Positions 7,327 through 50,367 are shown, counted from the whole stretch's first letter. The stretch is DNA of 62,897 bases, filler included, from 6 parts of 6 records of this genome joined end to end with filler, not necessarily neighbours in it; one strand, 5' to 3'. Made by a program: numbers and translations. The notes: generated from the letters alone by a model not told the origin.

Positions 7327-8733
7327 CTATTTGATGCGGTAGGCATCCTTGGCGGCCTGATAGCTCAGATGCTTGGCAACATCGCGCGCCGTGCTGCGCG
7401 AAATGCGGTTCTCACCCACCCAACGTCCCAGAAAGCCACAGACTTCGCGGCGCCAGACATCATGACGCGCCGGGATCGAGAGCAGCGCGCGGGTGTCGTC
7501 GTTGAAGCCGGCCAGATTATAGAAGCCAGCGCTTTCAACCACCTGATCGAGATAGCGACGAATGCCCTGTGGGCTATCATGGAACCACCATGGCGGCCCC
7601 ACCAGCAGGCTGGGCCAGTAACCGGCCATGGGGGCCAGTTCGCGGGCATAGGTGGTTTCGTCGAGCACGAACATGATCAGGCGCAGATTGGGCTCATTAC
7701 CGCAGCGTGAGAGCAGCGCGCGCAGGCCGTTGACGTAATCGGTGGTGCCCGGAATGTCGGCACCCAGATCGGGGCCACGCTCGGTGAACAGCAGCGGATC
7801 GGTGTTGCGGCGCGAGCCGGCATGGATCTGCATGACCATGCCATCCTCGACAGCCAGCAGGGCCATTTCGGTCAGCATCTGGGCGCGGAACAGTTCGGCA
7901 TCGTCGGCTGTATGCGTGCCAGCCAGAACGCGGTCGAGCAGTGCCTGCTTGTCGACCAGAGGCAGATCAGCCGTGTTGGCCGTCGGCACGCCGTGGTCGG
8001 TAGCCACCGCGCCATGCTGGCGGAAGAATTCGCGGCGAATGCGGTGTGCGTTGATCAACCCGTCCCACCTGGTGATGTCCTCGCCGGTCAGTTCGCCGAA
8101 CTTTTGCAGGTTGGCGGCAATGGCAGGGCGGCTTGGGTCGGTGACGTCATCGGGTCGATAGGTGGTGCGGACGCGACCGATATAGCCATCGGCCTTCATC
8201 TTTTGATGATGCGGCAGGGTATCGAGGGCAAATTCGGTGGTGGCGATGACCTCGACATTTGCATTGTCGAGCACGGCGCGCGGCAACAGGTCGGGCGTGG
8301 CGAGCGCGGCATCAATGCGATCATAGATGGCGTCGGCGGTCTCGCCCGAGAGTTCTTCTTCAATGCCGAAGGACGCCTTGAGCGAATGATCGATCCAGGT
8401 CTTGGAGGGGGTGCCGGCAAACAGATAATAATTGGCCGCAAACAGTCGCCAGGCATCGCGGCCGCCGGCGACCGGCTTGCCATCCTTGCGGGGCACGCCC
8501 AGATCGTCATAACTCAGGCCACGGCTGCGTAGCATGCGCAAGACGTAGTGATCGGGCGTCAGAAACAGGCTGGCCGGATCAGAAAAGCGCTGGTTGTTTG
8601 CAAACCAGGCCGGGTCGGTGTGACCGTGCGGGCTGATCAGCGGCAGGTCGGAGACCTCGGAATAGAGCTGGCGCGCAATGGTCTGGGCGGGCTCTGAAGC
8701 GGGAAACAGGCGGTCGGGATGCAGGTGTGTCAT
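7327..8733 (-). CDS. uxaC: Glucuronate (uronate) isomerase
   Basis: Motifs PLISPHGHTDP, PDHYVLRML, TYRPD, TDHG, MQIHAG, GPPWWFHDS, GFNDDTRA, ARHDVWRR. Confidence 0.95.
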   Translation of the reverse strand: MTHLHPDRLFPASEPAQTIARQLYSEVSDLPLISPHGHTDPAWFANNQRFSDPASLFLTPDHYVLRMLRSRGLSYDDLGVPRKDGKPVAGGRDAWRLFAANYYLFAGTPSKTWIDHSLKASFGIEEELSGETADAIYDRIDAALATPDLLPRAVLDNANVEVIATTEFALDTLPHHQKMKADGYIGRVRTTYRPDDVTDPSRPAIAANLQKFGELTGEDITRWDGLINAHRIRREFFRQHGAVATDHGVPTANTADLPLVDKQALLDRVLAGTHTADDAELFRAQMLTEMALLAVEDGMVMQIHAGSRRNTDPLLFTERGPDLGADIPGTTDYVNGLRALLSRCGNEPNLRLIMFVLDETTYARELAPMAGYWPSLLVGPPWWFHDSPQGIRRYLDQVVESAGFYNLAGFNDDTRALLSIPARHDVWRREVCGFLGRWVGENRISRSTARDVAKHLSYQAAKDAYRIK

Positions 8734-26852: not shown

Positions 26853-26952
26853 NNNNNNNNNNNNNNNNNNNNNNNNNNNNNNNNNNNNNNNNNNNNTTAA
26901 TTAATTAANNNNNNNNNNNNNNNNNNNNNNNNNNNNNNNNNNNNNNNNNNNN
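26853..26952. other. Artificial contig spacer
   Basis: N-run with TTAATTAATTAA. Confidence 0.99.
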
Positions 26953-27351
26953 ACACAGCTACCCCGCCCATTTCGAGGCTGTCGGATCAAGCCAATAGAA
27001 TTCCGCTTGGCGGTACCGCGGCACCGTTATCCGACTTGGACAGATTGGCCACCAAAGGGCCTGCCCTGAGATTTCCGTCAAGCCTGATGCTATCTGGCTC
27101 TTGGCGGTTTGCCGTTGGCTTAGGGTCACGGCAACCGTCAGTAATTCGTGGGGCGGGAGTTCAAAGGAACACGTATTGCTGCGCGAGGTTTCGTCCGACG
27201 CCAGGAACGAGAGCCTGCGCTACGCCCTCTATCTCTCGGGCCTAACTGATGCTGCCGCAGGTGTGCTCACACATTTCAGTTTCAAAGCAACCTATTCATG
27301 AAATCCAAAGACTTAGTCCCTTAGTTAAATTTATTACTTGAGGGCCTCATC

Positions 27352-27921
27352 ATGCAGCATCAGAACTACATCCATGTCGATCACACCCATTTTTTTATCG
27401 GGGACACTCATCTGGGGCATACTGGAATCCTCGATATGGCGATGCGCCCTTACAACGACATCGCTCAGCACGACCGGGACCTCATCGCAAATTGGAATAG
27501 CGTTGTTAAGCCCACGGATACGGTTTGGCATCTTGGGGACTTTGCATGGGATAAGCTGCCGACAATCGACGCCGGTGCAATTTTTAAGAAGCTAAACGGC
27601 ATTAAGCGGCTCGTCATCGGCAACCATGACACCGAGGACGTTCAGAAATTCGGTTGGGCCAGCACGCATGATATGGTGATCCTCAAGGCCAACGGTGCTG
27701 ACTTGGTACTCTTCCACTATCCGCTTCGGGAATGGCCCGGTTTCTATAGTGGAGCCCTGCACTTCCATGGACACACGCACGACAATCTCCCGTCCGGGCG
27801 CCGTGTTTGGGATTGTGGTGTCGATCATCAAGGCATTGTTCCCCTGACATATGACCAGATATGTCAGCGCATGGTGATGTTGCCAGAACTCGACTTTAGC
27901 GGCGTGCCACTTGCTGAGTGA
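27352..27921 (+). CDS. Calcineurin-like metallophosphoesterase (short type common in phages and islands)
   Basis: Motifs GDTHLGH, NWNSVV, HLGDF, GNHD, FHYP, HGHTH, DCGVD. Confidence 0.9.
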   Translation: MQHQNYIHVDHTHFFIGDTHLGHTGILDMAMRPYNDIAQHDRDLIANWNSVVKPTDTVWHLGDFAWDKLPTIDAGAIFKKLNGIKRLVIGNHDTEDVQKFGWASTHDMVILKANGADLVLFHYPLREWPGFYSGALHFHGHTHDNLPSGRRVWDCGVDHQGIVPLTYDQICQRMVMLPELDFSGVPLAE

Positions 27922-27939
27922 CCGTTTAGGAGCACGAAG

Positions 27940-28713
27940 ATGCGAGCGTGGGTGATGTCTGACCTGCATGTCGACAGTACGATGTTCCTTCTCCCTCCCA
28001 CGCCGCCGGATATCGATGCCATCATTATCGCTGGTGACGTCGCAGACGGTCACGATGGTTCCACGGCCTGGCTTTCAGAGCACGCTGTCCCACGTGGTCT
28101 GCCAGTCCTCTACATCGCAGGAAACCACGATGTTTTCGGCCACGATCGGCTCGGTGGGTTCGAGACGCTGTACGAGGCCGCCGGGGTTACGCTTTTGCAT
28201 CCCGGGCGCCCGACAACGATCATTGCCGGATGCCGCTTGGTTGGGACAACCTTGTGGACCGATTATCACATCACTGGCGACGCGCAATCTGCGCGGGCTT
28301 GGGCCCGCCGGAGCATGCCTGATATGGTTTCCATCGACGTGGGCATGCGGCGCGTGACTACGCGAGATTTGCTGGAGGAACATGCAAGGCAACGTGCTTT
28401 GCTGGAGGAGGAGTTATCCTATCCATACGACGGATCGACCGTTGTGATAACGCATCACGCCCCGCACCCGGGTTCGTTGCGATCACCGGAAAAGCGCGAT
28501 CCTTCCGATGGAAGTTTCGCGTCTGACTTGAGCGATCTAATGGATGCGTTCCAGCCTGCTGCGTGGGTGCATGGCCATACCCATATCAGCCGGGATTACT
28601 ATCACAACGCCACGCGAGTGGTATGCAACCCGCGTGGGCCGGTCCTGACTACAAAAGCGGGCATTCGTATCGAAAACCCCGAATTTGACGAAGAACTCGT
28701 CATCGAGATCTGA
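27940..28713 (+). CDS. Calcineurin-like metallophosphoesterase (second, different subtype)
   Basis: Motifs SDLH, AGD, GNHD, GTTLWTD, THHAP, WVHGHTH, CNPRG. Confidence 0.9.
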   Translation: MRAWVMSDLHVDSTMFLLPPTPPDIDAIIIAGDVADGHDGSTAWLSEHAVPRGLPVLYIAGNHDVFGHDRLGGFETLYEAAGVTLLHPGRPTTIIAGCRLVGTTLWTDYHITGDAQSARAWARRSMPDMVSIDVGMRRVTTRDLLEEHARQRALLEEELSYPYDGSTVVITHHAPHPGSLRSPEKRDPSDGSFASDLSDLMDAFQPAAWVHGHTHISRDYYHNATRVVCNPRGPVLTTKAGIRIENPEFDEELVIEI

Positions 28714-28826
28714 CAAATTTCCAACTGGGAACGAGGCGACACGTTCTGAGCGTCTTGCCGGGCGTCCGAGCGGTTACTCCTAATCGACCGAAACTTCAGG
28801 GTCGATCATTTCGCCTGCGCCGAGGC

Positions 28827-29066
28827 TCATTCCTGGTCTCTGGGGTGGTTGAGCAATACGCCGACACCTGAAGCCGTGTCCAAGAATGTAACGCCTGCTG
28901 CCTCCAATGCCTCCCTCAACCGGTCGGCGGTTCGTTCGAACGGGCGTGTCTTATTGTCCTCAAGCGATCGGATGGTTCGCTCGGTCACACCCGACGCAGT
29001 GGCAAGCTGTTCCTGGGTCCAATCCAGCAACGCCCGTGCCGCTCGAAGTTGGCTGCCGGTAATCAT
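28827..29066 (-). CDS. XRE/Cro-type HTH transcriptional regulator (79 aa)
   Basis: MITGSQLRAARALLDWTQEQLATASGVTERTIRSLE...LEAAGVTF; ATG at 29066. Confidence 0.9.
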   Translation of the reverse strand: MITGSQLRAARALLDWTQEQLATASGVTERTIRSLEDNKTRPFERTADRLREALEAAGVTFLDTASGVGVLLNHPRDQE

Positions 29067-29353
29067 AGAGAATCCTTTGCCGTAAGTGTCCGGCGCACGT
29101 GATCCCCGGTCAAGGATTACTTCGGTCCCGATATTAACCATGATCGCAGAAACTCTTCCGTTTTCCGGCAATTTGATTGATATTGTGCGAATTCCGTGTC
29201 ATGTCTTCTAGTCAGGGTCGCGGCACTCTAGCGCTTCCCTCCTCGGGACATGCGCCCGATTAGAATGTCGACGGATGGGCCAACCCGCCGGCAAAAATCC
29301 TTGCAAAATTTCCCGTCCGCAGACCGCGACACTCATGTCGCCGGAGTAAACCT

Positions 29354-29986
29354 ATGTCTCTTGCGTTACATCGCGGGCTAGACCCGCAATCCTATCCCGA
29401 CACACCCACCGGCATCGTTGATCGCAGCTTCGTCAGCCGACGACTCCTCCGAAACGCCGTCACGCTGGTAAACGCCCATCCGCGTGCGGATTACCTCGGT
29501 CCCGACAAGCTAGTCGACAGCCTTGCCCATGCCAAAGGATTCACCGGCGATGACCTGGCAATCCTGCGAGTATCGATTGGCAGGGGTCGCCATACCCTGA
29601 TCTGTGCACCTGAGATGCTTTGGTACTCCAGAAAATTCGACCTGCTCGAATTGAAGCAGATGGCCGGCTTCGCCGGACGGTCATGCTGTCTCATACCCGA
29701 AAGTGCCGTGCAGCGCCAGCCGCGCCTGAGTACCGCCCGGGCAATCGAAGATGCATGCGGCGTTTCGGTCTCCGTCGATCAAAGAATGGCAATCTTAGTT
29801 CATATGATTGAGAACGGCGGTAAATCCACATTTATGGATTGCGCGTGCGCCATTGATCACCCGCAGCCATTTTCAGCGGTGATGCATATGGTGGCCCTCG
29901 GCGTCCTACGCATTGACGCCACAACCGAGCTCAGGCCTCACAGCACCGTCAGCCTCAATGATAGATCGCCCGAGGAAGCCGCCTGA
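29354..29986 (+). CDS. Hypothetical protein resembling a catalytically degenerate TnsA paralogue
   Basis: GGAG RBS. The C-terminal half aligns by eye with the C-terminal half of the TnsA at 34311; no PD-(D/E)xK acidic residues are recognisable. Confidence 0.55.
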   Translation: MSLALHRGLDPQSYPDTPTGIVDRSFVSRRLLRNAVTLVNAHPRADYLGPDKLVDSLAHAKGFTGDDLAILRVSIGRGRHTLICAPEMLWYSRKFDLLELKQMAGFAGRSCCLIPESAVQRQPRLSTARAIEDACGVSVSVDQRMAILVHMIENGGKSTFMDCACAIDHPQPFSAVMHMVALGVLRIDATTELRPHSTVSLNDRSPEEAA

Positions 29987-30198
29987 CTTCCGCTTCCGGC
30001 CGGCGGTGCCGCGCTGCACATGCATGCTCGCTGCCCTTGGTCTCCGCCCAGTGATGGGGACCAACAGGCATCTGGCACGCGCGGCACCTGCCGGTCCGTG
30101 TTGCTTCTCACCGGCGGCACCCGGCCACATATCATGCTTTACGCCTCATACCAGTTTATCTCCAAAGCTGTAATCTGCCGCATGACAAGGATTTCACC

Positions 30199-30471
30199 AT
30201 GGACCTTGCTTTCAAGATAGAACGCCTCGCCGCCGACTTGCGCGCCATCGCCGATGGCAGCGGCCCCACCCATGACGAGCTCGCCGAGGCACCTCTGCTA
30301 TTGAACTGGCGCCTGGTTCCGATCCCCGCGGTCGCATTGGGGGGATTGGTGCTGGATCACCCCCGATTGGGCACGACACGGGTGACCACCTCCATGGTCT
30401 ATGCGATCAGTCCTGACAAACTCTGGGCACGCACGCTGTCACGCTACTATCGCTTTCAACCACCGGCCTGA
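30199..30471 (+). CDS. Small conserved protein with HPxLG...TS...WARTxSRxYR motif (recalled as DUF6634-like)
   Basis: AAGGA RBS; ELAEAPLLLNW, DHPRLG, VTTS, WARTLSRYYR. The family name is from memory and unverified. Confidence 0.75.
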   Translation: MDLAFKIERLAADLRAIADGSGPTHDELAEAPLLLNWRLVPIPAVALGGLVLDHPRLGTTRVTTSMVYAISPDKLWARTLSRYYRFQPPA

Positions 30472-30688
30472 TGCTCTGGCGCCCCTCGACTGCGGGCACC
30501 CCTGTTCCCGCAGCGCACATACACTTTGGGCCCACGGTCCCGCCTTTAACGCATACCTGGCGGCAATCGGGCATCACGATCGTGAAGTCGACAGATCGCT
30601 GACCCCTGCAGCATCCGATGTCGCTTTACTCCATTTCTTAGACAGCCCATCCCGGCGTTCGCGGAGGGCTCCACTCCGACATTCACAG

Positions 30689-32644
30689 ATGGCCAAGACC
30701 AAGCGCCTGGCATCCCCGGTGACGAGCGCTGATGCATTGGAGAGAAGTATGCACGTTGATATCGAGGACGACGACGAGCCCGAAAAGGCCGCAACGCCAG
30801 CAGGCACATGCCTCGTCAGTTCACGAGTTGCGGTTGCCTCAGTCGCCTTGGATCGTACGCTGGGCGCTTCCGGTCGTCGCTTGTTTAAAGGCACAAGCCG
30901 CATAGCCGCGGTTATTAAGGTTCCGACCGATCACTGGATTGTTCCCGTCAAGGCTGCCGTGCTAGCAATCAATCCCAAAATCACGTTCGCCGCCGAACAC
31001 GAAAAGCCGAAAACCAAAACCACCGAGGGACGAGAAGTCTCGGCAACGATTGCGCGAGGAGAGTCGGTCGTCGGCGTTTCCGCAAAGCCCGATCGCCTCC
31101 TGCCAGACGTCCTGTTGTTGGCCGCCACTCATCGATACGAGATCTCGCCGGCGACGCCCGAACTCGTCAGGCTCGCCATGAAATTGTGCCTTACCGGACG
31201 AACACCGGCTTCGCTCAAGAGTCTCGATCTATCTACTCTGGATTTCGATCTTCTGTGCGCGTGCATGCCGATGGGCATTACCAAAACGGCAGCCATCGAG
31301 CGACTATCCCGCGCCACGGCCAAACCCACCCGATCAGCCGGGTCGACCGGCCTTATTTACCCCAGTCTGGACGACGCCGTGGAATATGGTGATGCTCGCG
31401 CATGGGGACTGGACCTCAGAGCGGATATTGCTGATCTGCGCGCGAAGAAAGTGTCGTGGGCGGACATCGACCGCGGTGCAGTTCTCGAGGGCCCGCCGGG
31501 CTCTGGAAAAACGACGTTCGCCCGCATCTTAGGGGACGCCTGTGACCTGCCGGTCATCATGAGCTCGATATCGGAACTGTTTGCCAGCTCCGAAGGTAAC
31601 CTCGACTCCGTGATCAAGGCCCAGCGCAAGCTATTCGACGAAGCAACCGCTGCTGCTCCATGCCTCTTGTTCATCGATGAATTGAACGCCCTGCCAGATC
31701 CCGCCAGGATTTCACAACGGGGCAAGGACTGGTGGATGCCGGTGATCTACGACTTCTTTCTACTTCTTGATTCTGCCCTGTCGTCACGCGAGGGCATCAT
31801 CGTCGTAGGCGCCACCAATCTCATTCAGGATATTTCCCCGGCACTCCTCCGCCCGGGGCGACTGGAGCGTTCGATCCACATTGGAATTCCCGACGTCGAT
31901 GGGCTCGCCCGCATTTTGCGCACGCACCTGAGCGGAGATCTGGCGGGCCAGGATTTGCTCCCTTTAGCAAGAGCCGGTCTTGGCGCCACCGCAGCGGTCG
32001 CCATGGATTGGGTACGTGCGGCTCGGCGGACCAGCCGCCGGGCCGGTCGACCCTTGCTCGTCGGGGACCTCCTCGCGCAAATCACACCGGCTGACACCCG
32101 TTCGAGGGCAGATCGCTACCGGGCTGCGGTCCACGAAGCCGGGCACGGTGTGATTGGCTTGGCATTGGGCGAAAAACTCAAGGAAATATCGATAGTCCGA
32201 CGCGGCGAGTCCGGTGGTCGTGCGACCTTCGGCGAGCTGACTGAAACTCTCTTCGACCGCGAGCGCATGGAGCGTCAGGTAACCATGGTCCTCGGTGCGT
32301 CTGCTGCCGAGACAGAGGTATTCGGTTCGCTTTCCAGCGGCGCGGGCGGCAGTCCTGAATCCGATCTTGCTAGGGCGACCGACATTATGGCGACGCTACG
32401 GTCCAGCTATGGCATGGCCAACTCGTTGCTATGGGTGGCGCCAGCCGACGTGCCGACATTGTTAACACGTGACCCAGCGTTTCGGCAGGCTGTGGAAGCA
32501 GATCTTCAACGACTCTATGCCGATGCGAAGCGTCTGGCGCGCCAATACAGGGAGCAAATTCTGGCGGTTGCCGATCGGCTGCTCACGGAGGGCCAGATCT
32601 CGGGAGACATGGTGGCGCAATTGAGTTTCTTGGAGGCCGCCTGA
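30689..32644 (+). CDS. Soluble FtsH-like AAA+ ATPase / M41 zinc metalloprotease
   Basis: Walker A GPPGSGKT, Walker B LLFIDE, GATN, SRH PALLRPGRLE, HEAGH, SDLARAT; no N-terminal TM helices. Start at ATG 30689 is a best guess. Confidence 0.9.
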   Translation: MAKTKRLASPVTSADALERSMHVDIEDDDEPEKAATPAGTCLVSSRVAVASVALDRTLGASGRRLFKGTSRIAAVIKVPTDHWIVPVKAAVLAINPKITFAAEHEKPKTKTTEGREVSATIARGESVVGVSAKPDRLLPDVLLLAATHRYEISPATPELVRLAMKLCLTGRTPASLKSLDLSTLDFDLLCACMPMGITKTAAIERLSRATAKPTRSAGSTGLIYPSLDDAVEYGDARAWGLDLRADIADLRAKKVSWADIDRGAVLEGPPGSGKTTFARILGDACDLPVIMSSISELFASSEGNLDSVIKAQRKLFDEATAAAPCLLFIDELNALPDPARISQRGKDWWMPVIYDFFLLLDSALSSREGIIVVGATNLIQDISPALLRPGRLERSIHIGIPDVDGLARILRTHLSGDLAGQDLLPLARAGLGATAAVAMDWVRAARRTSRRAGRPLLVGDLLAQITPADTRSRADRYRAAVHEAGHGVIGLALGEKLKEISIVRRGESGGRATFGELTETLFDRERMERQVTMVLGASAAETEVFGSLSSGAGGSPESDLARATDIMATLRSSYGMANSLLWVAPADVPTLLTRDPAFRQAVEADLQRLYADAKRLARQYREQILAVADRLLTEGQISGDMVAQLSFLEAA

Positions 32645-32755
32645 CCACACCTTCGATCCAGGACCACTATACGGACCTGGCATCACGAGCGAAGGGATCG
32701 GTAACCCGTTGGGGTTCGCGCCGGAACTTTCCCGGCAACGACATCACACCTGACG

Positions 32756-33292
32756 TCATTCGGCCGGCAAATCTACCGGCTCCTCGGTTGGGTCCAAAGG
32801 TTCTTCCGGTCCCAACCCGCCTCCGATGAGGGGTTCGAGAACCGCGTATCCCTGTTTCAACCAATGAACCAGGTCATCGAATTCGCCTTCGCGACCGACG
32901 AAGTCTTGGCGGTTGCGGAATATCCAATCCACCGCCACGACCATTCTCGAATAGTCGCCCACAAGTTCGCCCAAACTCAAAAGCTTGCCAGATGATCGGC
33001 CGCTTGGACCGCGTCCAACAATGCCGGCGCCGTAGCGATCTTCGAGGTAGTCGAAAACGTCGGTCAGCGTCGACGAGCCCTTCCCCATTTTCTTGGCCGT
33101 TTTCGCCGCTGTCCATTTCGGATCGTGGGCGCTACCGGTGCGATGATGCGCGAGTGCGCGGATAGCGGTCTCGAACTTCACATCGTTGTTCGCAACATTC
33201 GGCTGGTTGTTCGAGATTTGAACTGCGCGGCGCGGATCAAGACGGGCCATCACAGGCTTGGACTTTTCGCGGGATTTGTCAATTTTGGTCAT
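32756..33292 (-). CDS. Stand-alone LysR/ModE-like winged-helix protein
   Basis: AAKTAKKMGKGSSTLTDVFDYLEDRYGAGIVGRGPSGRSSGKLLSLGE matches the LysR/ModE HTH pattern; AAGGGG RBS; no effector domain. Confidence 0.6.
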   Translation of the reverse strand: MTKIDKSREKSKPVMARLDPRRAVQISNNQPNVANNDVKFETAIRALAHHRTGSAHDPKWTAAKTAKKMGKGSSTLTDVFDYLEDRYGAGIVGRGPSGRSSGKLLSLGELVGDYSRMVVAVDWIFRNRQDFVGREGEFDDLVHWLKQGYAVLEPLIGGGLGPEEPLDPTEEPVDLPAE

Positions 33293-33342
33293 GGCGTCCC
33301 CTTAGAAATGGAAAACTTAAGGGGACGCTGGTTGAAAAAGGA

Positions 33343-33729
33343 TTAGGGGCCAAATCCTTTCAAGGATTTGAACTCATCGGGAACCGATCCGCCGATGCCG
33401 GCGAAGATGGGCCCGATCTCCCGAAGAACCTCCTCTTGAAGGGTCTCGCATACGTTATGCTTGAAGACACCACGAACGTGGGCACGGACCGTGTCACCAT
33501 CGCCTTGACGATAATCCAGCAGCTCCGGTCGGGCCGAGAGCAGCATGACTACGGTAGCGTCATCGAATTCGGCAGGTAGGTAATCGTTGCTGGCCTTTAC
33601 CAGCCCCTGCGCGACCCAGTCGCCCACCACGGCCCAATCCTCATTCCTGTCTTCTTCGGTGATCGTTAGGCGCAGCCACTCGATCGCGCGCACCGTCACC
33701 TTGGCCTTGTAGTCGTCGACGTCGAACAT
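33343..33729 (-). CDS. Hypothetical acidic protein (128 aa)
   Basis: GGAGAG RBS; plausible composition; co-oriented with the wHTH gene. Confidence 0.65.
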   Translation of the reverse strand: MFDVDDYKAKVTVRAIEWLRLTITEEDRNEDWAVVGDWVAQGLVKASNDYLPAEFDDATVVMLLSARPELLDYRQGDGDTVRAHVRGVFKHNVCETLQEEVLREIGPIFAGIGGSVPDEFKSLKGFGP

Positions 33730-34037
33730 TTCCGCTCTCCAATTGGTTGCAAGCGGACATTGCCCCGGATGCTGGCAAGAAACAAAAAGTCAAACAAACA
33801 TTTTTCTCAGAGTTTCCGATCAGTAAATTTTCCCGAAACCCGGGCCCCGGTGCACTTCGATACTCGGCAGTTCGGGTGCGCCGAGTTTGTCGCGCAGAAA
33901 CTTCGGCATCACCGAACTTCGGCCCGCGGAAGCTCCGATGTTCCTGCAGCAGCGGCCAAAATATTCCTGCGGCGGCAACAATATAAACGTGCGACTTGAG
34001 GGGAAGGAAACAACGCCAACCTGAAAGGACGCCCACG

Positions 34038-34172
34038 ATGGCCACACAAACCGCAATAAACACCAAAAATCTCAGATATCGTCATCCAATGGTGCTTGTG
34101 GACGATTTCGACGAATACTCAAACGCCGAACTTTCAGACGTACTTCGCCTAATTCGTACTGCCCGATACTAA
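34038..34172 (+). CDS. 44-aa leader ORF upstream of tnsA, absent from the ORF track
   Basis: MATQTAINTKNLRYRHPMVLVDDFDEYSNAELSDVLRLIRTARY*; preceded by TGAAAGGACG, the same 10-mer as before tnsB. Confidence 0.5.
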   Translation: MATQTAINTKNLRYRHPMVLVDDFDEYSNAELSDVLRLIRTARY

Positions 34173-34310
34173 CGATTTTCTCCCGGTATTATATTGAGTT
34201 CAGGAGTTAATGATTTGCTGGTCGATGTTCCCCCTCCCCTCTCTCTTCTGGTGACGCCGTTCCACCCGAAGCACCACGAAGGTGCGGCCAACTCGACGCA
34301 TCTCTACAAG

Positions 34311-35063
34311 ATGCTCCAGGAGTGCGTTTCCGCCCAGGCCTTTCGAGCCGCTTTTCCAGTATTTGAGAGCGCCCCTGTGCATTCTTCACCCGACCGGTCA
34401 GACGTTGAGTGGTCGATGCCGCTCGACAGCCGTGCGAGCCGCGTGCCGTCGGTGCGCAGCACGTCGTCTCATCGTGTCGCGGGCATGAACGCTCTAACCG
34501 GCCGCGCCCAGTACATGGAGAGCTTGATCGAAACCGATCTGATCTCGATTCATACCGTGGATCACGACGTGGTGGACATCGAAGAGCAGATCGAGCCGGT
34601 CCAGTACCTCGATCAGACCGGCAAAGTGCGCGAACACACTTTCGACGTCAGGATCACCCGAGCATCTGGGAAAGTATCCGTCTACGCCTGCAAGGCAGCG
34701 GCATTCAGGATTTCGAGCGGCATCGACGAGATCGTTGCTCGAATTCGCGAGCAGGTTCCCGGTTTCGCAGATGAACTCTTGGTCGTCACCCGTGCCGACG
34801 TAAGCAAGGTCGCTGCCGCCAACGCCAGGCAGATTCTTCAGGCTCGCCGTCTCCGGGATGAGCTCGACGAGGTCACATTGCGAAAGGTCATGTCCTCGGT
34901 CCATGGCTGGGTCACCATCGAGGCCCTCACGGACGATCCCGAGGAGGCAGGTCGCCTCTACGTCGCGGCGGTCAACCTCATCGATCGCGGTTCGATGCAA
35001 TGGACCAAAGCCGATCGCATCTGCCCCTCCATGTCTATCCGTTTCACCCCCTCATTTCTTTGA
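34311..35063 (+). CDS. tnsA: TnsA-like PD-(D/E)xK endonuclease
   Basis: ESLIETD, DVVDIEEQ, HTFDVRIT, YACK, C-terminal winged helix. Start uncertain (frame open from 34194). Confidence 0.8.
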   Translation: MLQECVSAQAFRAAFPVFESAPVHSSPDRSDVEWSMPLDSRASRVPSVRSTSSHRVAGMNALTGRAQYMESLIETDLISIHTVDHDVVDIEEQIEPVQYLDQTGKVREHTFDVRITRASGKVSVYACKAAAFRISSGIDEIVARIREQVPGFADELLVVTRADVSKVAAANARQILQARRLRDELDEVTLRKVMSSVHGWVTIEALTDDPEEAGRLYVAAVNLIDRGSMQWTKADRICPSMSIRFTPSFL

Positions 35064-35074
35064 AAGGACGTCCA

Positions 35075-37240
35075 ATGAACGTTCCCGCTCTCCGCTCCAG
35101 CCTCGTCCCCGCAATCGCCTCCGAAGGCAGCGCCCCGGCATACCGTTATGACCGGTCGCACCTCTATATTCTCAACGGCGTAAAACACATCTACGCCGAA
35201 AGCCAGGGATCGACCAACCGGTTTACCCTGCTGGATCAGCCCGATCTGTCCGTAGAGTTTTCGGACGAAGACCTCGAGGTCCTGCGTGACCGGGGACTCT
35301 TCCGCACGATCCGCTTCCACTTTCTCAAGTCTACACCAGCAAGGGTAGGTAAGTGGGCGAACCTAAGCGATCTTCCCGCAGAGGATCTGCGCGAGGTCCT
35401 ATTCCGCCAAACCATCTGCGACGGGATCATTTCCGCCCTGGGAAACCAGCGTCGTAGCTCGGAGAAGGACAAGCTGACGCTCTCCGACGCCAAACTCACT
35501 CCCCTGATTGCCAAGGTGTATGCCGGGTGGTTCGAGTGTGACGTCCAAGCGATGACCAAGGATGGTCGTAGTGGCTCGAAGTATCTGGGTAAAGTGCTTA
35601 TCAAGCCTGCCCCCTCAACGGCTCGTAGGTGGCTGCGTCAGTATCGTGCCTGCAATTTCGACCCAATGGCACTTTGCAAAAACTATGGGCGGAGCGGCAA
35701 CAGAGATAGCCGTCTGGGGAATCTTGAGCAGAAGATCGTGGCGCGCTTCTCGAAACGATATCTGAGCCGCCTGCAGCCGTCGAAGGCTGAGCTCTATCGA
35801 GAGATGGATCGATTCATTTTCAAGCTCAATAAGCGCCTGATCAGATCCGGCCGGAAGCGAGCCGTATGCCCGTCGCGACGTTCATTCGAGCGTGCCATTG
35901 ATCGGCTTGATCCGTTCGCTGTGATTGCCGGTCGTCAAGGTGTAGAGTACGCCAAACGCGAGCTCCAGATTATCCGTGGTGAGGTAGACGCAGTTCGGCC
36001 GCTCGAGCGTGTAGAAATGGACGAATGGCGCGTCCCACTCCAAACACTGCTCGAAAAAGCTGACCTGTGGTCGATGCTGCCGGCCGAGGAGAAGGCGAAG
36101 GTACAGCGCAAACGACTCTGGCTTTCTACGGCGATTGATACGGTCACTAGAACTGTTGTCGCTGCCAAAGTCATATTCGTCCCAAGTGGCTCGGCTGCCG
36201 TGCAGACAATTGCGATGGGCCTTTACGACAAGACCGAGATCGCCAGGGATGCTGGTTGCGAAATGCCCTGGGATATTTATGGCCTATGGGAAACCCTGCC
36301 CACGGACTCCGGATCCGCCTACGTCAGTCATGAGTTTCGGGCGGCCTGCATCGATGTCGGTATCCACGCCTATGTGACACCCGCCAAGCTACCGTCCATG
36401 CGGGGTCGGCAGGAGCGTCTCTATCGGACGCTGCACGACATGCTGATCGCGCAGTTTCCGGGCCGCTCCTTCCAAAACGTAGTCAAGAAGGGGGACTACG
36501 ACTCCGAGGCCAATGCGGTAATCGACTATGAAGAGCTGGCTCGAGCGCTGGTTCGCTTCATCGTAGACGTTTACCACGTTCGTCCGCATGCCGGGCTCGG
36601 TGGTGCCACTCCGTACGATACTTGGCAGCGTCTGCGGGCAAAGTATCGTGTCCTGCCGCCCCCTGAGAAGGACGTCGCCCGTCATGTATTCGGCATCACG
36701 CTGGAGCGTCGCATTGGTGCCTACGGCATCCGGGCCCTCGGCCTGAACTTTCAGTCCGAAGAACTTCAGCGCATGCGTTCGGCCTCTAGGAACAAGCCGG
36801 TGCTCGTCCGTCTCGATCCAAACGACCTAGGTTATGTATCGGTCAAGACGGACGATGGCTGGATGAATGTCCGATGCCAACGTGCGGGTTTCGAGGGTGT
36901 CTCGATGATGCACTGGCTGGCGGCTTCGCTGAAGCTTCGTCAGGAAAACGCCAGGCTTGCCGCCCTTCGCGAAGACGTGGTGCACGCCGCTCTCGATGCG
37001 ATCGCGGGCATGGCGCGGGGTGCCATCCGTCGCGCCGGAATTGCCTCTCCGGTCATTTCGCAGGAGGACGTCGAGAAGTTTGAGCGCGATCTCTATCGGA
37101 CATTCTCGTTCGACGAGGAGGGGATCGATTTCGGGGACATGACGGAACAATCGCTTGTCGGCACGTCGGCAACGCCTATCGAGGTCCCGGCGAAACCCGC
37201 CCTGCCCGCCCCCGATGGCAAGTATGAGATCGAAGACTGA
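35075..37240 (+). CDS. tnsB: TnsB/TniA-like DDE transposase with Mu-type C-terminus
   Basis: DDE triad VEMDEW / LPTDSGSAY / RGRQERLYRT; AIDTVTR; YHVRPHAGLGGATP; VRLDPNDLG; GAAAGGA RBS. Confidence 0.9.
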   Translation: MNVPALRSSLVPAIASEGSAPAYRYDRSHLYILNGVKHIYAESQGSTNRFTLLDQPDLSVEFSDEDLEVLRDRGLFRTIRFHFLKSTPARVGKWANLSDLPAEDLREVLFRQTICDGIISALGNQRRSSEKDKLTLSDAKLTPLIAKVYAGWFECDVQAMTKDGRSGSKYLGKVLIKPAPSTARRWLRQYRACNFDPMALCKNYGRSGNRDSRLGNLEQKIVARFSKRYLSRLQPSKAELYREMDRFIFKLNKRLIRSGRKRAVCPSRRSFERAIDRLDPFAVIAGRQGVEYAKRELQIIRGEVDAVRPLERVEMDEWRVPLQTLLEKADLWSMLPAEEKAKVQRKRLWLSTAIDTVTRTVVAAKVIFVPSGSAAVQTIAMGLYDKTEIARDAGCEMPWDIYGLWETLPTDSGSAYVSHEFRAACIDVGIHAYVTPAKLPSMRGRQERLYRTLHDMLIAQFPGRSFQNVVKKGDYDSEANAVIDYEELARALVRFIVDVYHVRPHAGLGGATPYDTWQRLRAKYRVLPPPEKDVARHVFGITLERRIGAYGIRALGLNFQSEELQRMRSASRNKPVLVRLDPNDLGYVSVKTDDGWMNVRCQRAGFEGVSMMHWLAASLKLRQENARLAALREDVVHAALDAIAGMARGAIRRAGIASPVISQEDVEKFERDLYRTFSFDEEGIDFGDMTEQSLVGTSATPIEVPAKPALPAPDGKYEIED

Positions 37241-38379
37241 TGCTTACAAATACCTCCGTAACCGGTGCTGCAGGCGTTCTCGATCGCCTGCAGCAGTCGC
37301 AATCACCCGAGCGACGCGCTCGCAATGAACTGATCCGTCAGATCGAACAGGCATACGTGCCGAACGAACGTGACGACAAGTTCCAAGTCGCGCTCGATGA
37401 AGTCGTCGACGCGCATGTCAGACATTTCGAGGCACGTCTAGATGGCGCCCACCGCAACGTCGGCTCTCTCGCTGAAGGACGACTCCTCGCTGTCGTCGGG
37501 CACTCCGGTGCCGGCAAGACACGCCTGCTTGAGCGTCATTTTCATCATCGGCCGGAATTCCGTGGATACGGCACGTCAAACTGTCTCCTGATCTCGGTCA
37601 AGGCTCAAGGTCCCTTTGCCCTAAGTGGCCTGGCAAGGAGCATTGCCGTCGCGGCGGGAGTGAAAGTTAGGAAAGCCTTCCATAACCGGGACGCTGCGTT
37701 TCAATTCGCCCGCGATCAGGTGGAAGATAGGATCATCATCATCCATATCGACGAGGCGCAGCTTCTGCTGTCGTCGCCGAAAGAAGAAGAAATTCAGTCT
37801 GCTCGAAATCTTCTTCGAACCTTTTGTCAGGAGTCTAAGTGGCCTGTGTCGGTCATTCTGTCGGGGACACCGGAAACGTCCAAGCTATTCGGTGACTACC
37901 AGATCGCTCGTCGACAGACGATCATTACCCTCGATGAGATCGATTTCCAGTCCGGCGTACCGATCCTGCAGTCCGCCATGAACGATTTTCTGAAGAAGGC
38001 GTCGCTGGCCGAAGCACTTGATCGGGGACTTCTATTCGAGCAACTGATGTATGCGTCACTGTACCAACTTGGCGATAGCATCGCCATCATGCGGGCCGCC
38101 TTCTCGCATGCCATCCGGGAGAACTCCGGTACCCTAAAGGTCGAGCATTTTGCCGCTGCCTTTCATGACAGAACGTCATGCCCCGCGGATTTAAATGTCT
38201 TCGGCGATGAGGTTGATTATCGCACCATCGACGTAGCGAAGCTCTATGAGCAGGCACGCGGCAAGCGTGCCAGGAAAACATCGGACACGGTGATGGAAGC
38301 GATGCCGGCGTCAACCGCGGCTGTGCAACCCACCGACCCGGTTGGGGTCAGGAAACTGCGGGTAAAGAGAAAAAAATGA
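37240..38379 (+). CDS. tnsC: TnsC/TniB-like AAA+ ATPase
   Basis: Walker A GHSGAGKT, Walker B IIHIDEAQ, ILSGTP, QIARR; start overlaps the tnsB stop. Confidence 0.9.
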   Translation: MLTNTSVTGAAGVLDRLQQSQSPERRARNELIRQIEQAYVPNERDDKFQVALDEVVDAHVRHFEARLDGAHRNVGSLAEGRLLAVVGHSGAGKTRLLERHFHHRPEFRGYGTSNCLLISVKAQGPFALSGLARSIAVAAGVKVRKAFHNRDAAFQFARDQVEDRIIIIHIDEAQLLLSSPKEEEIQSARNLLRTFCQESKWPVSVILSGTPETSKLFGDYQIARRQTIITLDEIDFQSGVPILQSAMNDFLKKASLAEALDRGLLFEQLMYASLYQLGDSIAIMRAAFSHAIRENSGTLKVEHFAAAFHDRTSCPADLNVFGDEVDYRTIDVAKLYEQARGKRARKTSDTVMEAMPASTAAVQPTDPVGVRKLRVKRKK

Positions 38380-40265
38380 TCAAGATCGCCCAACATCGTC
38401 TCCTCGGCCTAGGCGCAGGCGAGAGCCAGGCGAGCGTGCTTTCCCGTATCGCCATGGAGGTCGGGCTGACCCCGTTCGAGTTCTGCACCGAACTCCGCAC
38501 GAATGTGCCCGCCGTTCTCGATGGTGCTCCCGACGCCCTAAACCGGCTCGCGGAAGCCTGCCAAATAGATCCAGTCGCCCTGGCCGAGAACTCACTCATC
38601 CGAACGGGAAAGCGGCTGTATCGGCACCGGGGTATCGAAGTTCGTCAGCCGAACTTCGAACGAACGGTTATGCGGGTTTGCCCAACTTGCATTCGCGAAG
38701 ACATCGCTACCGGCTCTGGCCGCATCGTCACCAGGCCATACATGCGCACCTTGTGGCATGCTTCTGCCATTGGCACCTGCTCGATACACAACGTTGAGCT
38801 GGCGCTGGGCGGCCACGAGAAGCGTTGGACGAAGGTCAATGATACGGCGACAAGAATGCGCGGCGTCCTCGAGAGGCTGGATTCTCTGCCTGTAAGGGAC
38901 CTCGCCCCGACGCCAGCGGAAAGGTATCTTCTCGGCCGCTTCGAAGGTGCGGCGGACCGCTCGTGGCTCGGTGGGCAGTCCTACCATGCCACAACCAAGC
39001 TCTTTGAATATGTTGGAACCATGGAACGTCATGGTCTTCAAGGGAGCTGGCTTAATCTTACGGCAGACCAGAGGCGTGATGCCCTCCAGGCTGGGTATGA
39101 GGTTCTTCGGAGAGGGTCGGAGCATTTCGACGAATGGCTGGGGACGTACACCTCTTCCTTCTTCAGCGGCCGGGCGGCCTGGAGCGGCCAGCTTCTCTAC
39201 GGTCGCCTTTATATTTGGCTTAGGAGCAACCTTGCAGATGCCGAACTTGATGGTGCGCGCGAGGTCGTGCGGAACCACATGCTCGATCGGCTTCCGCTTG
39301 GGCCAGAAGATAGCATCTTTGACCAGCCGGTGGAGCGTCGGAAATTCCATACTCCGAACTCACTTTCGCTGTGTAGGAACATCCCCCTCACTTCCATCAG
39401 GCGCGTTGGGGCTTTTGAGAACGTCCTGGTCGATAATCCGGACCTTTCCGACGATCGGGTCCTCATGGACGCCGACGCCGGAGAAGCGCTGGCTGACCGT
39501 ATCGTCGCCATGTACGAAACAGCGGCGGCCATGGCGCCGGTTGCGAATGACTCGCCGGGGAAAAAGCGAAAGGCGAAAACTGGCCTCTCACTCCAGGACG
39601 TGCGGCGCAGAATGCACCTGATGCGCGGCCAGGAACGGTATATCCTGAACTCGGGTTATCTCACGCCACGCCCATCACCCGTGGAGGGCCAATATTCTTT
39701 CGAGGTGACCGAGGTCGATGCCCTAATAGACAAGATAATGTCACGCGTAGTTGTCCCGACGCCTGCCGGTCTGGTCCCCATTGCCACCGCCTATCGCCGG
39801 GCTGGGTGCAGCATAGTTCAAATATTCCCCCTCTTGATGGAGGGAAAAATGACGCGCGTCGGGATGGCAGAGGGAAAGGCCGGCATCGCGGGGCTGATGG
39901 TGTGCTCAGACGAGGTGAAGCGACTGCTGCCTCGACCACCGGCGAATGGCCTTAACAAGCAACAAGTGGAAAAAGCGCTGCGTACCACGTCGAGGGTGGT
40001 CAATCGACTACTCGATCGCGGCCACCTGCCCTATTTCATTGAACGGCACGGGACACGCTCTCAAAGGATGGTGTCCCAGGCCGATCTGGAAGCATTTATG
40101 AGTAAGTACATTTCCGCTCATAACTTGTCCCGCGAATGGCACCTCGGCACATACGGGGTGAAAAAACGGCTCGCCGATACCGGTGTGCGACCGGCCCTCG
40201 CCAGAGGTGAAATCAAGGCCTCTTTCTACCTTCGCTCGGATGTTCCAGACCGACTTCCAACCTAA
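38376..40265 (+). CDS. tniQ: TniQ/TnsD-family target selector with a long C-terminal multi-HTH extension
   Basis: GESQASVLSRIA; zinc motif RVCPTCIRED...W...CSIH; 629 aa; ATGA overlap with tnsC. Confidence 0.88.
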   Translation: MIKIAQHRLLGLGAGESQASVLSRIAMEVGLTPFEFCTELRTNVPAVLDGAPDALNRLAEACQIDPVALAENSLIRTGKRLYRHRGIEVRQPNFERTVMRVCPTCIREDIATGSGRIVTRPYMRTLWHASAIGTCSIHNVELALGGHEKRWTKVNDTATRMRGVLERLDSLPVRDLAPTPAERYLLGRFEGAADRSWLGGQSYHATTKLFEYVGTMERHGLQGSWLNLTADQRRDALQAGYEVLRRGSEHFDEWLGTYTSSFFSGRAAWSGQLLYGRLYIWLRSNLADAELDGAREVVRNHMLDRLPLGPEDSIFDQPVERRKFHTPNSLSLCRNIPLTSIRRVGAFENVLVDNPDLSDDRVLMDADAGEALADRIVAMYETAAAMAPVANDSPGKKRKAKTGLSLQDVRRRMHLMRGQERYILNSGYLTPRPSPVEGQYSFEVTEVDALIDKIMSRVVVPTPAGLVPIATAYRRAGCSIVQIFPLLMEGKMTRVGMAEGKAGIAGLMVCSDEVKRLLPRPPANGLNKQQVEKALRTTSRVVNRLLDRGHLPYFIERHGTRSQRMVSQADLEAFMSKYISAHNLSREWHLGTYGVKKRLADTGVRPALARGEIKASFYLRSDVPDRLPT

Positions 40266-40286
40266 CCACCGAACTCATTGCTACTT

Positions 40287-40316
40287 GCCCCGCTGCCCCT
40301 GGCCGCGGGGCTTTTT
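40287..40316 (+). terminator. Intrinsic terminator after tniQ
   Basis: GCCCCGC...GCGGGGC stem followed by TTTTT. Confidence 0.8.
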
Positions 40317-40493
40317 CATGCGTGAAGACACCGAATCCATTGGGCTAATCTGAGCGAAACTGACGCGTCCTTTTGGCCGAAGGCAGAGCCAAACTATTTC
40401 GCTAACCCATTGAATTCCAATAACTAATATCTACTCATTGAGCCATCCATTGGTACCCTTAAGACAAACCGACAACCCGTTGGAAGGCAGACA

Positions 40494-41021
40494 GTGAGCG
40501 ATCACGTTCTTGAGGAACTGCGAGAAACCTTCGAGGCGCGCAAGCGGCTCGAAGGCGCTGTTGGTTGGGAAAGATCAGGCGACGGCCGTAGCCTGCAATT
40601 TGTAGTTCCACTTATGATAGACGGGTTAATCGCAGAAGGAGTGCGCCTGCGGGGTTTAACCAGCACGCGAAGGCCCGATAGGGATGTCTCTTTCCAACAT
40701 GAACAAATACTCGGGGGCACCACATATCACGTATCCCGATTAGATTGGCGTCCTCGCGCACCACATACCAACCGAGGGGCTGGACCAGAAGAACTTAGAT
40801 TCTCTCCAATTTCAGGGAGCCATTGGCATCCCTTCCAACTGAATGCGGAACTTGGCGTCGAGGCAGTCCTTTCTATGGGCAACTTGCCCGTAGCTCTACC
40901 AATCGATCCAGATCCACTGGATTTTAACGCACTTAAGAATACACTGCGTGAGTTGTTTCGAATCGGCAACGCGCAGGAAATAGGATTGCCGCCGTGGTCA
41001 CCGGAACTGGACTTCGAATAG
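40494..41021 (+). CDS. Hypothetical protein with an RLDW...HxN...HWH motif, partner of the DUF1828-like gene
   Basis: GTG start with GGAAGG RBS; SRLDWRPRAPHTN, GSHWHPF; overlaps the next gene. Confidence 0.75.
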   Translation: MSDHVLEELRETFEARKRLEGAVGWERSGDGRSLQFVVPLMIDGLIAEGVRLRGLTSTRRPDRDVSFQHEQILGGTTYHVSRLDWRPRAPHTNRGAGPEELRFSPISGSHWHPFQLNAELGVEAVLSMGNLPVALPIDPDPLDFNALKNTLRELFRIGNAQEIGLPPWSPELDFE

Positions 41022-41758
41022 GTGAGGATAATCTCCGCGAGGTCGCGAGCAGCGTCTCACGTGAGCTCACGACGACCATTTTTGATCGTGGCGAGGCCTA
41101 CATCCAAACACCAATGCTCTATCCAGACGGCACAAACGTGCTCGTTCGATTGAATATGACCAACGGCAATGACTACTTCGTGACCGACTGCGGCTTAGGT
41201 GCGCGAACCGCTCACTTGTCTGGCGCTGACTACTGGTTCCGCAAGTATGGTGAAATTCATGCTAGAATGGCCGGCATCCATTTCGACGCTCAAGACTTTT
41301 TCACAGTCAATGTAGCGCGTGAAAAACTTGCAATGGCCGTTGCTACGCTCGCCAATGCCTCAAAGACAACAGTGGACATTGCCCTGTTAAAAATGTCTGA
41401 GCACCGCCAGGCTGAAAACAAGAAGCTGCTTGAGAGCAAGCTTGTCTCCATATTCGGCAGCAAGCATGTCACACTTGAAGCCGAAGTCACTGGCGCGTCC
41501 AATCATCGCTGGATGATCGACGTTTTGGTGGATCACAACAATCGCAGAACAGCCTTTGATCTAGTTAAACCCGTCCCGCAATCAGTTTATCCCGCGGTGG
41601 CCAAGTTTGTTGATATTAGCGATGCCGACATTAAACTTGGTCGTGTTGCTGTTCTTGAGAGCAGGCCACCAGAAATGGACCTGGTGACGCTTCTAAGCAG
41701 ATCGGCCAAGGTAATTTTCAGATCTGACCCAGACGAAATATATCAAGCAGCGGCATAA
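40994..41758 (+). CDS. DUF1828-like N-terminal domain plus a restriction-endonuclease-like C-terminal domain
   Basis: IQTPMLYPDG...VTDCG N-terminal motif; C-terminal VTGASNHRWMIDVLV and KFVDI. Confidence 0.7.
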   Translation: MVTGTGLRIGEDNLREVASSVSRELTTTIFDRGEAYIQTPMLYPDGTNVLVRLNMTNGNDYFVTDCGLGARTAHLSGADYWFRKYGEIHARMAGIHFDAQDFFTVNVAREKLAMAVATLANASKTTVDIALLKMSEHRQAENKKLLESKLVSIFGSKHVTLEAEVTGASNHRWMIDVLVDHNNRRTAFDLVKPVPQSVYPAVAKFVDISDADIKLGRVAVLESRPPEMDLVTLLSRSAKVIFRSDPDEIYQAAA

Positions 41759-41837
41759 ACAGCTGAGCGATTTCAGGCAACGAAAACTTATCCCCGCCCC
41801 CGGCCCCTCATGCCATTCTCCCCTCACGACCGCACCA

Positions 41838-41937
41838 NNNNNNNNNNNNNNNNNNNNNNNNNNNNNNNNNNNNNNNNNNNNTTAATTAATTAANNNNNNN
41901 NNNNNNNNNNNNNNNNNNNNNNNNNNNNNNNNNNNNN
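41838..41937. other. Artificial contig spacer
   Basis: N-run with TTAATTAATTAA. Confidence 0.99.
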
Positions 41938-42354
<417 letters not shown>

Positions 42355-50333: not shown

Positions 50334-50367
50334 TGTCCTCGCCCTGGCTGTGTGTCTTGTTGGAGCG

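Follow-up and report, generated by a model that had tools for sequence, protein, structure and literature searches.

A mobile gene cassette with a non-membrane FtsH-like protease and a TnsA-derived partner beside a Tn7-like transposition core

Tn7-like transposons serve as the chassis of CRISPR-guided DNA insertion tools, and their accessory factors and what they require of the host are under active study. We analyzed a stretch of 62,897 nucleotides (the window), a chain of separate contigs, one of which carries six genes upstream of a Tn7-like gene set. These encode two metallophosphoesterases (MPE1 and MPE2), an XRE-type helix-turn-helix (HTH) regulator, a TnsA-like protein (orf210, or pseudo-TnsA), a small DUF6634 protein, and an FtsH-like protease. 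Do these genes belong together, and does the group serve the transposon that they adjoin or the host? We find that the grouping recurs in other genomes more than chance would allow and that it rides on mobile elements of several kinds, directly beside their mobility genes. As to function, we lean tentatively towards a proteolytic switch that controls element mobility, with a defense role nearly as likely.

A protease and its recurring partners

The protease contains a Walker A motif (GPPGSGKT, residue 248, position 31490), a Walker B motif (DELN, residue 310, 31676), and the M41 motif HEAGH (residue 462, 32132). Pfam models for AAA (PF00004, E 4.3e-21) and Peptidase_M41 (PF01434, E 3.6e-18) match it, residues 238–624 align with the solved FtsH chains 4ww0 and 2ce7 (E 1e-34 to 1e-36), and the Walker A, Walker B, and HEAGH motifs, among others, are invariant in 28 homologues. 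No ImmA/IrrE-type family was found among its Pfam matches at E ≤ 0.01, and a Peptidase_M50B match is sub-threshold (E 0.0071; 16.5 bits against a cut-off of 26). The hydropathy profile indicates no membrane helix (maximum over 19 residues, 1.42), and the protein scores 142.8 bits against the FtsH equivalog model TIGR01241, below the cut-off of 600. By this score and the missing membrane anchor, it is not an FtsH orthologue.

The region preceding the active AAA module contains a degenerate AAA-like domain (approximately 30782–31340), hereafter the N-domain, which is conserved and specific to this protease family. Structure prediction for the first 238 residues gave an alpha/beta domain with a predicted local distance difference test score (pLDDT) of 86.6. 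Its best structural matches are nearly all AAA+ proteins, led by Bcs1 (Z 8.3 over 164 aligned residues) and including Pex1/6, an i-AAA protease, and DnaA (Z 7.5). The family consensus contains no P-loop. With Z values in the middling range, the N-domain is likely a degenerate first AAA module. In two family members, P0152 (963 amino acids, aa) and P0153 (882 aa), the AAA-like N-domain is duplicated ahead of the active AAA and M41 domains. The protease is therefore best described as a predicted non-membrane enzyme, in which a degenerate AAA-like domain is followed by a putatively active AAA+ unfoldase and an M41 HEAGH peptidase.

Using a protease profile, we collected 80 loci, with one genome per species. 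L001–L043 are true family members, while the remainder match only the generic AAA domain. The 43 members are nearly all from Alphaproteobacteria, including Bradyrhizobium, Bosea, Methylobacterium, and Devosia, among others. Partner genes were counted with iterative profiles built from the window proteins and applied to all six frames, up to 10 kb on each side of the protease; these are minimum counts, since contig ends cut into 13 of the 43 loci and leave less than 10 kb on one or both sides. Pseudo-TnsA and DUF6634 were each found near the protease in 16 of the 43 loci, MPE2 in 10, the XRE regulator in 7 (always upstream and on the opposite strand), and MPE1 in 2 (always directly before MPE2). 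At least one of pseudo-TnsA, DUF6634, and MPE2 accompanies the protease in 29 loci. Another small HTH family is present in L001, L002, and L036. In L009 and L010, the partner position is occupied by a 317-aa protein (c28), which on comparison proved unrelated to pseudo-TnsA and DUF6634.

Run against 1.84 billion representative proteins, the N-domain profile returned 519 representatives at E ≤ 1e-30 and 1461 at E ≤ 1e-10. The best 150 matches include two natural fusions, each found as a single representative. P0193 (960 aa) joins in one frame pseudo-TnsA (residues 69–194, E 2e-22), DUF6634 (222–304, E 8e-18), and the protease (333–943), in the same order as the genes of the window. P0203 (925 aa) joins MPE2 (1–254, E 6e-64) to the protease (299–913). 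Such fusions speak for partners that act in physical contact with the protease. A prediction of the complex between DUF6634 and the N-domain, run without controls, scored 0.00 and is evidence neither way.

The gene grouping is more than chance: other genomes have the same families around the protease. The preliminary description of this locus, which had proposed a six-gene module and had named recurrence in other islands as one test of that proposal, is upheld in its core: pseudo-TnsA, DUF6634, MPE2, and XRE genes all recur, the first three with the further support of the fusions. The claim holds less well at its edges, as MPE1 is rare and XRE is present in a minority of loci. Judged by sequence comparison, XRE, pseudo-TnsA, DUF6634, the protease, and MPE2 form one portable cassette, with MPE1 as an occasional rider.

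Both phosphoesterase translations contain intact metal motifs, namely GDTHLGH, GDF, GNHD, and GHTH in MPE1 and SDLHVD, GDVADG, GNHD, and HGHTH in MPE2. The relatives of MPE1 include phrog_547 (6.5e-41) and PDB entry 1xm7 (1.5e-12). MPE2 is related to phrog_1649 (3.4e-35) and matches the PADLOC candidate PDC-S10 over its first 104 residues only (1.8e-07), while a profile search of the PDB gave no match for it. The XRE gene is divergent from orf210 across a gap of 182 bp, and its product matches the PADLOC capH model (7e-08) and the N-terminus of RmrA.

For orf210, there was no Pfam match, and its sequence profile found no match in the PDB. We compared an alignment of 16 members of its family with one of 13 TnsA proteins from the same loci using hhalign. 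The two families align with 99.2% probability (E 2.7e-19) over 181 columns that span both TnsA domains. The columns of the TnsA catalytic residues E (ES.LE), D (TFD), and K (VK) are not conserved in the orf210 family, whereas the real TnsA of the window keeps all three (YMESLIE, HTFD, and YACK). On this comparison, orf210 is a full-length TnsA paralogue that is predicted to be catalytically dead.

The DUF6634 protein carries the motif G.V.GHP...TS...GWARTLSR.YRLG and is modeled with a pLDDT of 94.4 as two helices and a five-stranded sheet. No convincing structural relative was found, the best Foldseek E value being 0.28 and the best VIA Z 3.9. A search for longer DUF6634 proteins found only five.

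Several points of the preliminary description are borne out by these data. All six genes were confirmed at their positions as open reading frames, all but orf210 with Pfam support, both phosphoesterases have the intact metal motifs ascribed to them, and the strands and the 182-bp gap agree with an XRE gene divergent from a three-gene unit. The labels "pseudo-TnsA" and "soluble FtsH-like" also proved apt, the former by TnsA homology with loss of E, D, and K, and the latter by the M41 and AAA matches and a hydropathy profile that lacks a membrane segment.

Association with Tn7-like and other mobile elements

The Tn7-like gene set of the window is complete, comprising tnsA (E/D/K nuclease), tnsB (DDE), tnsC (AAA+), and tniQ (Table 1). 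The distance from MPE1 to tnsA is 6.8 kb on a single contig, as the preliminary estimate of about 7 kb had it. Across the family, 15 of the 43 loci have a TnsB gene no more than 10 kb from the protease. In 13 of these, TnsB is downstream on the protease strand, with tnsA starting 256–2676 bp after the protease; in the other 2, it is upstream and divergent. Remnants of TnsA and TniQ are present in L005. In all five genomes checked, the TnsB next to the protease is either the sole TnsB match of the genome or one of two, which places the linkage of protease and TnsB far from chance.

The linkage does not reflect joint descent of fixed partners. Protease and TnsB identities are uncorrelated (Spearman −0.08, 120 pairs): L001 and L002 share 90% identity in the protease and 29% in TnsB, and L001 and L003 share 71% and 88%, respectively. 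Since the two do not track each other, the cassette has been shuffled between elements. DNA comparisons reveal where homology breaks. L001 and L002 are 92% identical over 5.2 kb, from MPE2 to the protease, and this homology ends at the 3' end of the protease gene; the homology between the window and L090 covers the protease only. In two Bosea species (L018 and G031), an island occupies the same site after an AraC gene, with approximately 90% identity in the flank, the promoter region, and pseudo-TnsA. Where DUF6634 begins, identity falls abruptly to about 65%, a level that persists across the protease, and the tns genes are not alignable. Together, these breaks indicate that the region is mosaic.

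The arrangement of the islands also varies. L090 is a compact island between DnaE2 and a RibD_C gene, containing XRE, pseudo-TnsA, three small open reading frames, the protease, TnsB, TnsC, and TniQ; a canonical TnsA is absent, and no space is left for cargo beyond tniQ. In L019 and L027, the cassette is situated between the 3' end of a tRNA-Met gene and tnsA and is inverted relative to tnsA.

Other classes of mobile elements were identified by a Pfam scan of neighboring genes, from which L014, L034, and L038–L043 were left out. A large serine recombinase lies directly downstream of the protease on the same strand in L102 and L103. L102 is from the L018 genome, which thus holds two copies; DUF6634 and pseudo-TnsA accompany this one, and no Tn7 gene is nearby. 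In L009 and L010, a large serine recombinase is located upstream. These two loci share a 6.5-kb unit (L009 6322–12800, L010 6322–12816) that is 93.6% identical between a Bosea and a Beijerinckiaceae metagenome-assembled genome, containing the recombinase, an XRE gene, the 317-aa protein, the protease, and two small genes; this identity suggests recent transfer. The protease of L020 is followed by three genes, two with tyrosine-recombinase matches, that of L026 by an integrase and then a serine recombinase, and that of L036 by a serine recombinase 3 kb downstream. L004, L012, and L013 encode a protein of about 550 aa with weak integrase matches, and plasmid partition genes lie near L013, L023, L026, and L035. 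The placement beside a Tn7-like core proposed in the preliminary description is thus recurrent without being specific to Tn7, since in loci that lack Tn7 genes the cassette adjoins serine or tyrosine recombinases. The protease family is rare among sampled Alphaproteobacteria: the N-domain profile gave strong matches in 2 of 401 genomes, one being the query genome G001.

Table 1. Features of the contig that carries the cassette, in window coordinates.
Feature	Position	Strand	Basis or remark
MPE1, 189-aa calcineurin-like metallophosphoesterase	27352-27921	+	Metallophos_2 PF12850, E 4.2e-06
MPE2, 257-aa metallophosphoesterase	27940-28713	+	Metallophos PF00149, E 4e-13
XRE-type HTH regulator	28827-29171	-	HTH_3, E 2.8e-08
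orf210 (pseudo-TnsA)	29354-29986	+	No Pfam match; hhalign to TnsA family
DUF6634 protein, 90 aa	30199-30471	+	PF20339, E 1e-13
Soluble FtsH-like protease, 631 aa	30749-32644	+	AAA and M41; database product starts at 30749, though the frame is open from 30401
orf178 and orf128	32756-33729	-	Between protease and tnsA; family not recognized in domain and family scans
tnsA	34194-35063	+	TnsA_N; E/D/K present
tnsB	35000-37240	+	rve/Mu-transpos_C; PADLOC TnsB 1.9e-16
tnsC	37240-38379	+	AAA_22/TniB
tniQ	38376-40265	+	TniQ 1.1e-15
Divergence point of other public runs	40464-40466		Contig comparison; weak candidate for the tniQ-side element end
orf175 and orf254	40494-41758	+	3' of tniQ; variable cargo or flank

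The contig extends from 26953 to 41837 (14,885 bp) and is bounded by N...TTAATTAATTAA...N linkers at 26853–26952 and 41838–41937. The sugar-utilization genes NanE/GntR to its left and atpI/atpB/parB/parA/gidB/gidA to its right are on other contigs and therefore carry no information on its flanks. For the same reason, a truncated atpB (41890–42342) was rejected as an insertion site; it is a contig end at a linker. Profile searches of the 43 family loci found no relatives of orf178, orf128, orf175, or orf254, the single match for each being the window itself. orf254 has weak matches to the PADLOC candidate PDC-M24B (8.3e-06) and phrog_1960 (8.7e-09). A promoter and terminator scan gave no excess over shuffled sequence.

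Does the cassette lie within the Tn7-like element? Contigs from three other public runs (X4, X7, and X11), at least 90% and mostly at least 95% alike to the window, match it from 26953 up to 40464, where all three diverge into one shared continuation; orf175 and orf254 both lie past this point. Reading inward from 40466, TGTC...CCAATGGAT resembles TGTC...CCAATAGAA at 26980. This candidate pair of ends is weak, with a terminal alignment in the top 1.65% of controls, no enrichment of shared 9-mers, and no 5-bp target duplication. Comparison of inverted repeats upstream of tnsA with those downstream of tniQ gave no convincing ends in 13 loci, and none were found in L090. Repeats in the gaps of L019 and L027 were not significant against shuffles, and no clean empty site for L018 was found among 61 genus genomes that gave flank matches. 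Repeats of 225 bp after tniQ in L001 and L003 were considered as ends but look like a duplicated small gene instead. From its flanks, we place the window cassette on the tnsA side of the transposon, and probably, though not firmly, inside it.

Some observations on these loci stand apart from the question of ends. A scan for clustered repeats in 17 loci found only three perfect direct copies of GGAACAAAACTTTGGGTC in L018 (18360–18444), about 480 bp after tniQ, where none are expected by chance; they have no inverted partner within 21 kb. The coding-like stretch of approximately 225 bp occurs twice in L001 (19598–19824 and 20222–20448) and in L003 (19482–19703 and 20628–20849). In X7, loose ends of 29 and 27 letters at 36177 and 38837 are near reverse complements of each other and border the 3' part of tnsB, tnsC, and the 5' part of tniQ; they could be the ends of an inserted element, which we take as a hint only. 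X7 and X11 cover the stretch at about 36.2–38.8 kb thinly or not at all, and no contig bridges it, so this region was not used as evidence. On other contigs of the window, we noted a gene of the aminoglycoside/hydroxyurea resistance kinase family (6017–6919, minus strand; APH_6_hur, 1.2e-59) and a gene for a 978-aa protein with N-terminal ankyrin repeats and no further recognized domain (50350–53286, plus strand). The latter is followed on its 3' side by several genes without a known family, in a stretch of lower G+C content (~0.54).

Possible functions of the cassette

We hypothesize, with some reserve, that the cassette is a signal-responsive proteolytic switch for element mobility. Here, the XRE regulator would keep the divergent operon shut. 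The partners may act as recognition or sensing modules of the protease, so that a signal read through them, by a dead nuclease that still binds DNA or protein or by a phosphoesterase, would trigger the protease. The enzyme would then unfold and degrade a DNA-bound element protein, either the XRE repressor or a transposition protein, and this degradation would switch neighboring transposase or recombinase genes in their expression or activity. Such a circuit would follow the logic of ImmR/ImmA or CapH/CapP, with an ATP-dependent protease in place of theirs. Wherever an XRE gene was found, it is divergent from the operon. In addition, adjacency to three unrelated recombinase classes fits the control of expression better than a mechanism tied to a single transposase.

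Several observations weigh against such a switch. A repressor–protease pair should always include its repressor, yet XRE is present in 7 of the 43 loci, along with a few other HTH genes. In 25 of the 43, there is no Tn7 gene within 10 kb, and in the window the two minus-strand genes between the protease and tnsA make co-transcription with tnsA impossible. The position of the cassette inside the element rests on flanks. Some elements (L009/L010 and L090) carry only a recombinase and the cassette, which is more usual for cargo that benefits the host. Moreover, defense genes are often found near the cassette. In L021 (Microvirga lenta, 1857–7936), a set of genes for a cyclic-oligonucleotide-based antiphage signaling system (CBASS), consisting of a SAVED-2TM effector, a ThiF-like protein, and a CD-NTase, lies with a C5 DNA methylase directly upstream of the cassette and the Tn7-like core. 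Further defense neighbors are present in L020 (a SAVED protein), L025 (DUF499/DUF1156/DUF3780), L030 (AbiEi), and L012.

These neighbors and the existence of small elements with the cassette as sole cargo speak for a second reading, which we regard as possible and nearly as likely: a defense system against phages or other mobile elements that is carried as cargo. In such a system, the partners would sense the invader, the AAA+ protease would degrade an invader or host protein, and XRE would tune expression. The patchy distribution of the family, the rapid exchange of modules between elements, and the interchangeable and sometimes fused partners are all in keeping with defense, as are the phage relatives of MPE1 and MPE2 and the weak matches of MPE2 to PDC-S10 and of the AAA domain to IetA. 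However, no PADLOC system model matched, and the IetA/IteA matches cover the generic AAA domain only, at 48.9 bits against a cut-off of 510. The location is also atypical. Cargo of Tn7-like elements is normally found beyond tniQ, but the Tn7-like loci have the cassette on the tnsA side (15 loci), with a possible tniQ-side placement in one (L020). Finally, one component is derived from the transposon's own TnsA.

That component invites readings in which the cassette acts on transposition itself, and we consider these improbable. In one, pseudo-TnsA would dock on TnsB/TnsC and recruit the unfoldase-protease to dismantle the strand-transfer complex, with MPE2 trimming DNA ends; a parallel exists in ClpX, which takes apart the Mu strand-transfer complex. 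Such remodeling would suit the homology of pseudo-TnsA to both domains of TnsA, its fusion to the protease in P0193, the constant position beside tnsA, and the make-up of L090, where TnsB, TnsC, and TniQ occur with pseudo-TnsA upstream of the protease as the only TnsA-like protein. It is at odds with L102, where pseudo-TnsA, DUF6634, and the protease stand beside a serine recombinase, and with the presence of pseudo-TnsA or DUF6634 in L004, L007, L011, and L013 as well. Conversely, many Tn7-linked copies (L003, L006, L016, L017, and L029) have no pseudo-TnsA.

A related and equally doubtful proposal is that the cassette changes the mode of transposition, giving Tn7-like elements a switch of their own between cut-and-paste and copy-and-paste. 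The dead TnsA might replace TnsA in the TnsB/TnsC complex and leave the 5' strands uncut; the intermediate would then be Mu-like, either replicative or processed by nicking and joining. Pseudo-TnsA might further recruit the unfoldase-protease as a built-in counterpart of ClpX to strip the complex, and a metallophosphoesterase might trim DNA flaps.

Alternatively, the cassette could lie outside the transposon, with the 3' end of the protease gene serving as an attachment site for Tn7-like and other elements. This had to be considered because the order of protease and tnsA mimics that of glmS followed by Tn7R and tnsA, the layout of Tn7 at its attachment site. The two genes are co-directional with gaps of 200–900 bp, protease and TnsB identities are uncorrelated, most strikingly in L001/L002, and the homology in L001/L002 and window/L090 ends at the protease 3' end. 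Nevertheless, we judge this reading unlikely. Although it lacks mobility genes, the cassette is found with Tns genes at unrelated chromosomal sites (L090, L018/G031, and L019/L027). It is inverted relative to tnsA in L019 and L027, the recombinase is upstream in L009 and L010, and the identity break in L018/G031 precedes DUF6634 instead of following the protease. Element stacking at one site together with recombination between cassettes would explain the mosaics equally well.

Least probable is that a proteostasis or stress protease and stray phosphoesterases merely share an island as ordinary neighbors. MPE1 does occur in only 2 of the 43 loci, and orf178, orf128, orf175, and orf254 were found in the window alone, but in many genera the protease is again surrounded by the partners, two gene fusions exist, and the N-domain is conserved and family-specific.

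Comparison with known systems

The preliminary description did not recognize the combination as a named system, and the comparison with PADLOC that it had called for agrees. No system was matched in PADLOC-DB 2.0, where the cassette proteins gave only generic or partial matches (the IetA AAA domain, the capH HTH, and the first 104 residues of PDC-S10) and pseudo-TnsA and DUF6634 gave none. The full-text literature that we searched contains nothing on DUF6634 or on the cassette; the supplements of surveys of Tn7 cargo, which lie outside this search, could list the genes. The architecture of a dead TnsA, DUF6634, a phosphoesterase, and a soluble two-module FtsH-like protease therefore appears to be undescribed, a variant among the accessory protease cassettes of mobile elements. 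A conserved AAA+ protease that is borne by the element and sits, together with a TnsA-derived partner, at its tnsA end would represent a new layer of control or processing in these transposons, while a defense system of this kind would add an architecture absent from current catalogues. Either way, the cassette offers a testable context for DUF6634 and for the two-module FtsH-like protease, a family of 519 representative clusters (E ≤ 1e-30), and the natural fusions name likely binding partners.

The closest enzyme is FtsH, with which the cassette protease shares one AAA module followed by an M41 HEXXH peptidase, the Walker A, Walker B, and HEAGH motifs being invariant in the cassette family. 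Unlike FtsH, it has no transmembrane or periplasmic N-terminus and carries instead the P-loop-less AAA-like domain of about 235 aa; it is rare and found on mobile elements, not a housekeeping protein.

As for regulation, ImmR/ImmA of ICEBs1 and CapH/CapP of CBASS each pair an XRE repressor with a zinc-protease anti-repressor. The cassette resembles them in that an XRE gene and a zinc metalloprotease gene are neighbors and lie next to the recombinase genes of a mobile element, and the window XRE matches the capH model. It differs from ImmR/ImmA in that its protease is an ATP-dependent M41 enzyme and not of the ImmA/IrrE type, and in that its XRE gene, present in a minority of loci, is divergent rather than co-transcribed.

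The TnsA of Tn7 is homologous to orf210 over both the nuclease-like and the C-terminal domains. In contrast to TnsA, orf210 and its family lack the catalytic E, D, and K; the gene precedes that of the protease, in addition to a real tnsA or, in L090, in place of one, and family members also occur away from Tn7 genes.

The anti-phage system IetAS/IteA likewise combines an AAA+ ATPase with protease activity on mobile DNA, and the cassette AAA domain matches its models weakly (PADLOC IetA 8.5e-12, NCBIfam IteA 5.1e-13). These matches are to the generic AAA domain and far under the cut-off, the M41 peptidase of the cassette is fused to the ATPase, and no IetS-like gene was seen. The ClpX–Mu pair offers the remaining parallel, as an AAA+ unfoldase takes part in the life cycle of a DDE transposon related to TnsB; ClpX, however, is a host protein, whereas the unfoldase-protease of the cassette is encoded by the element itself.

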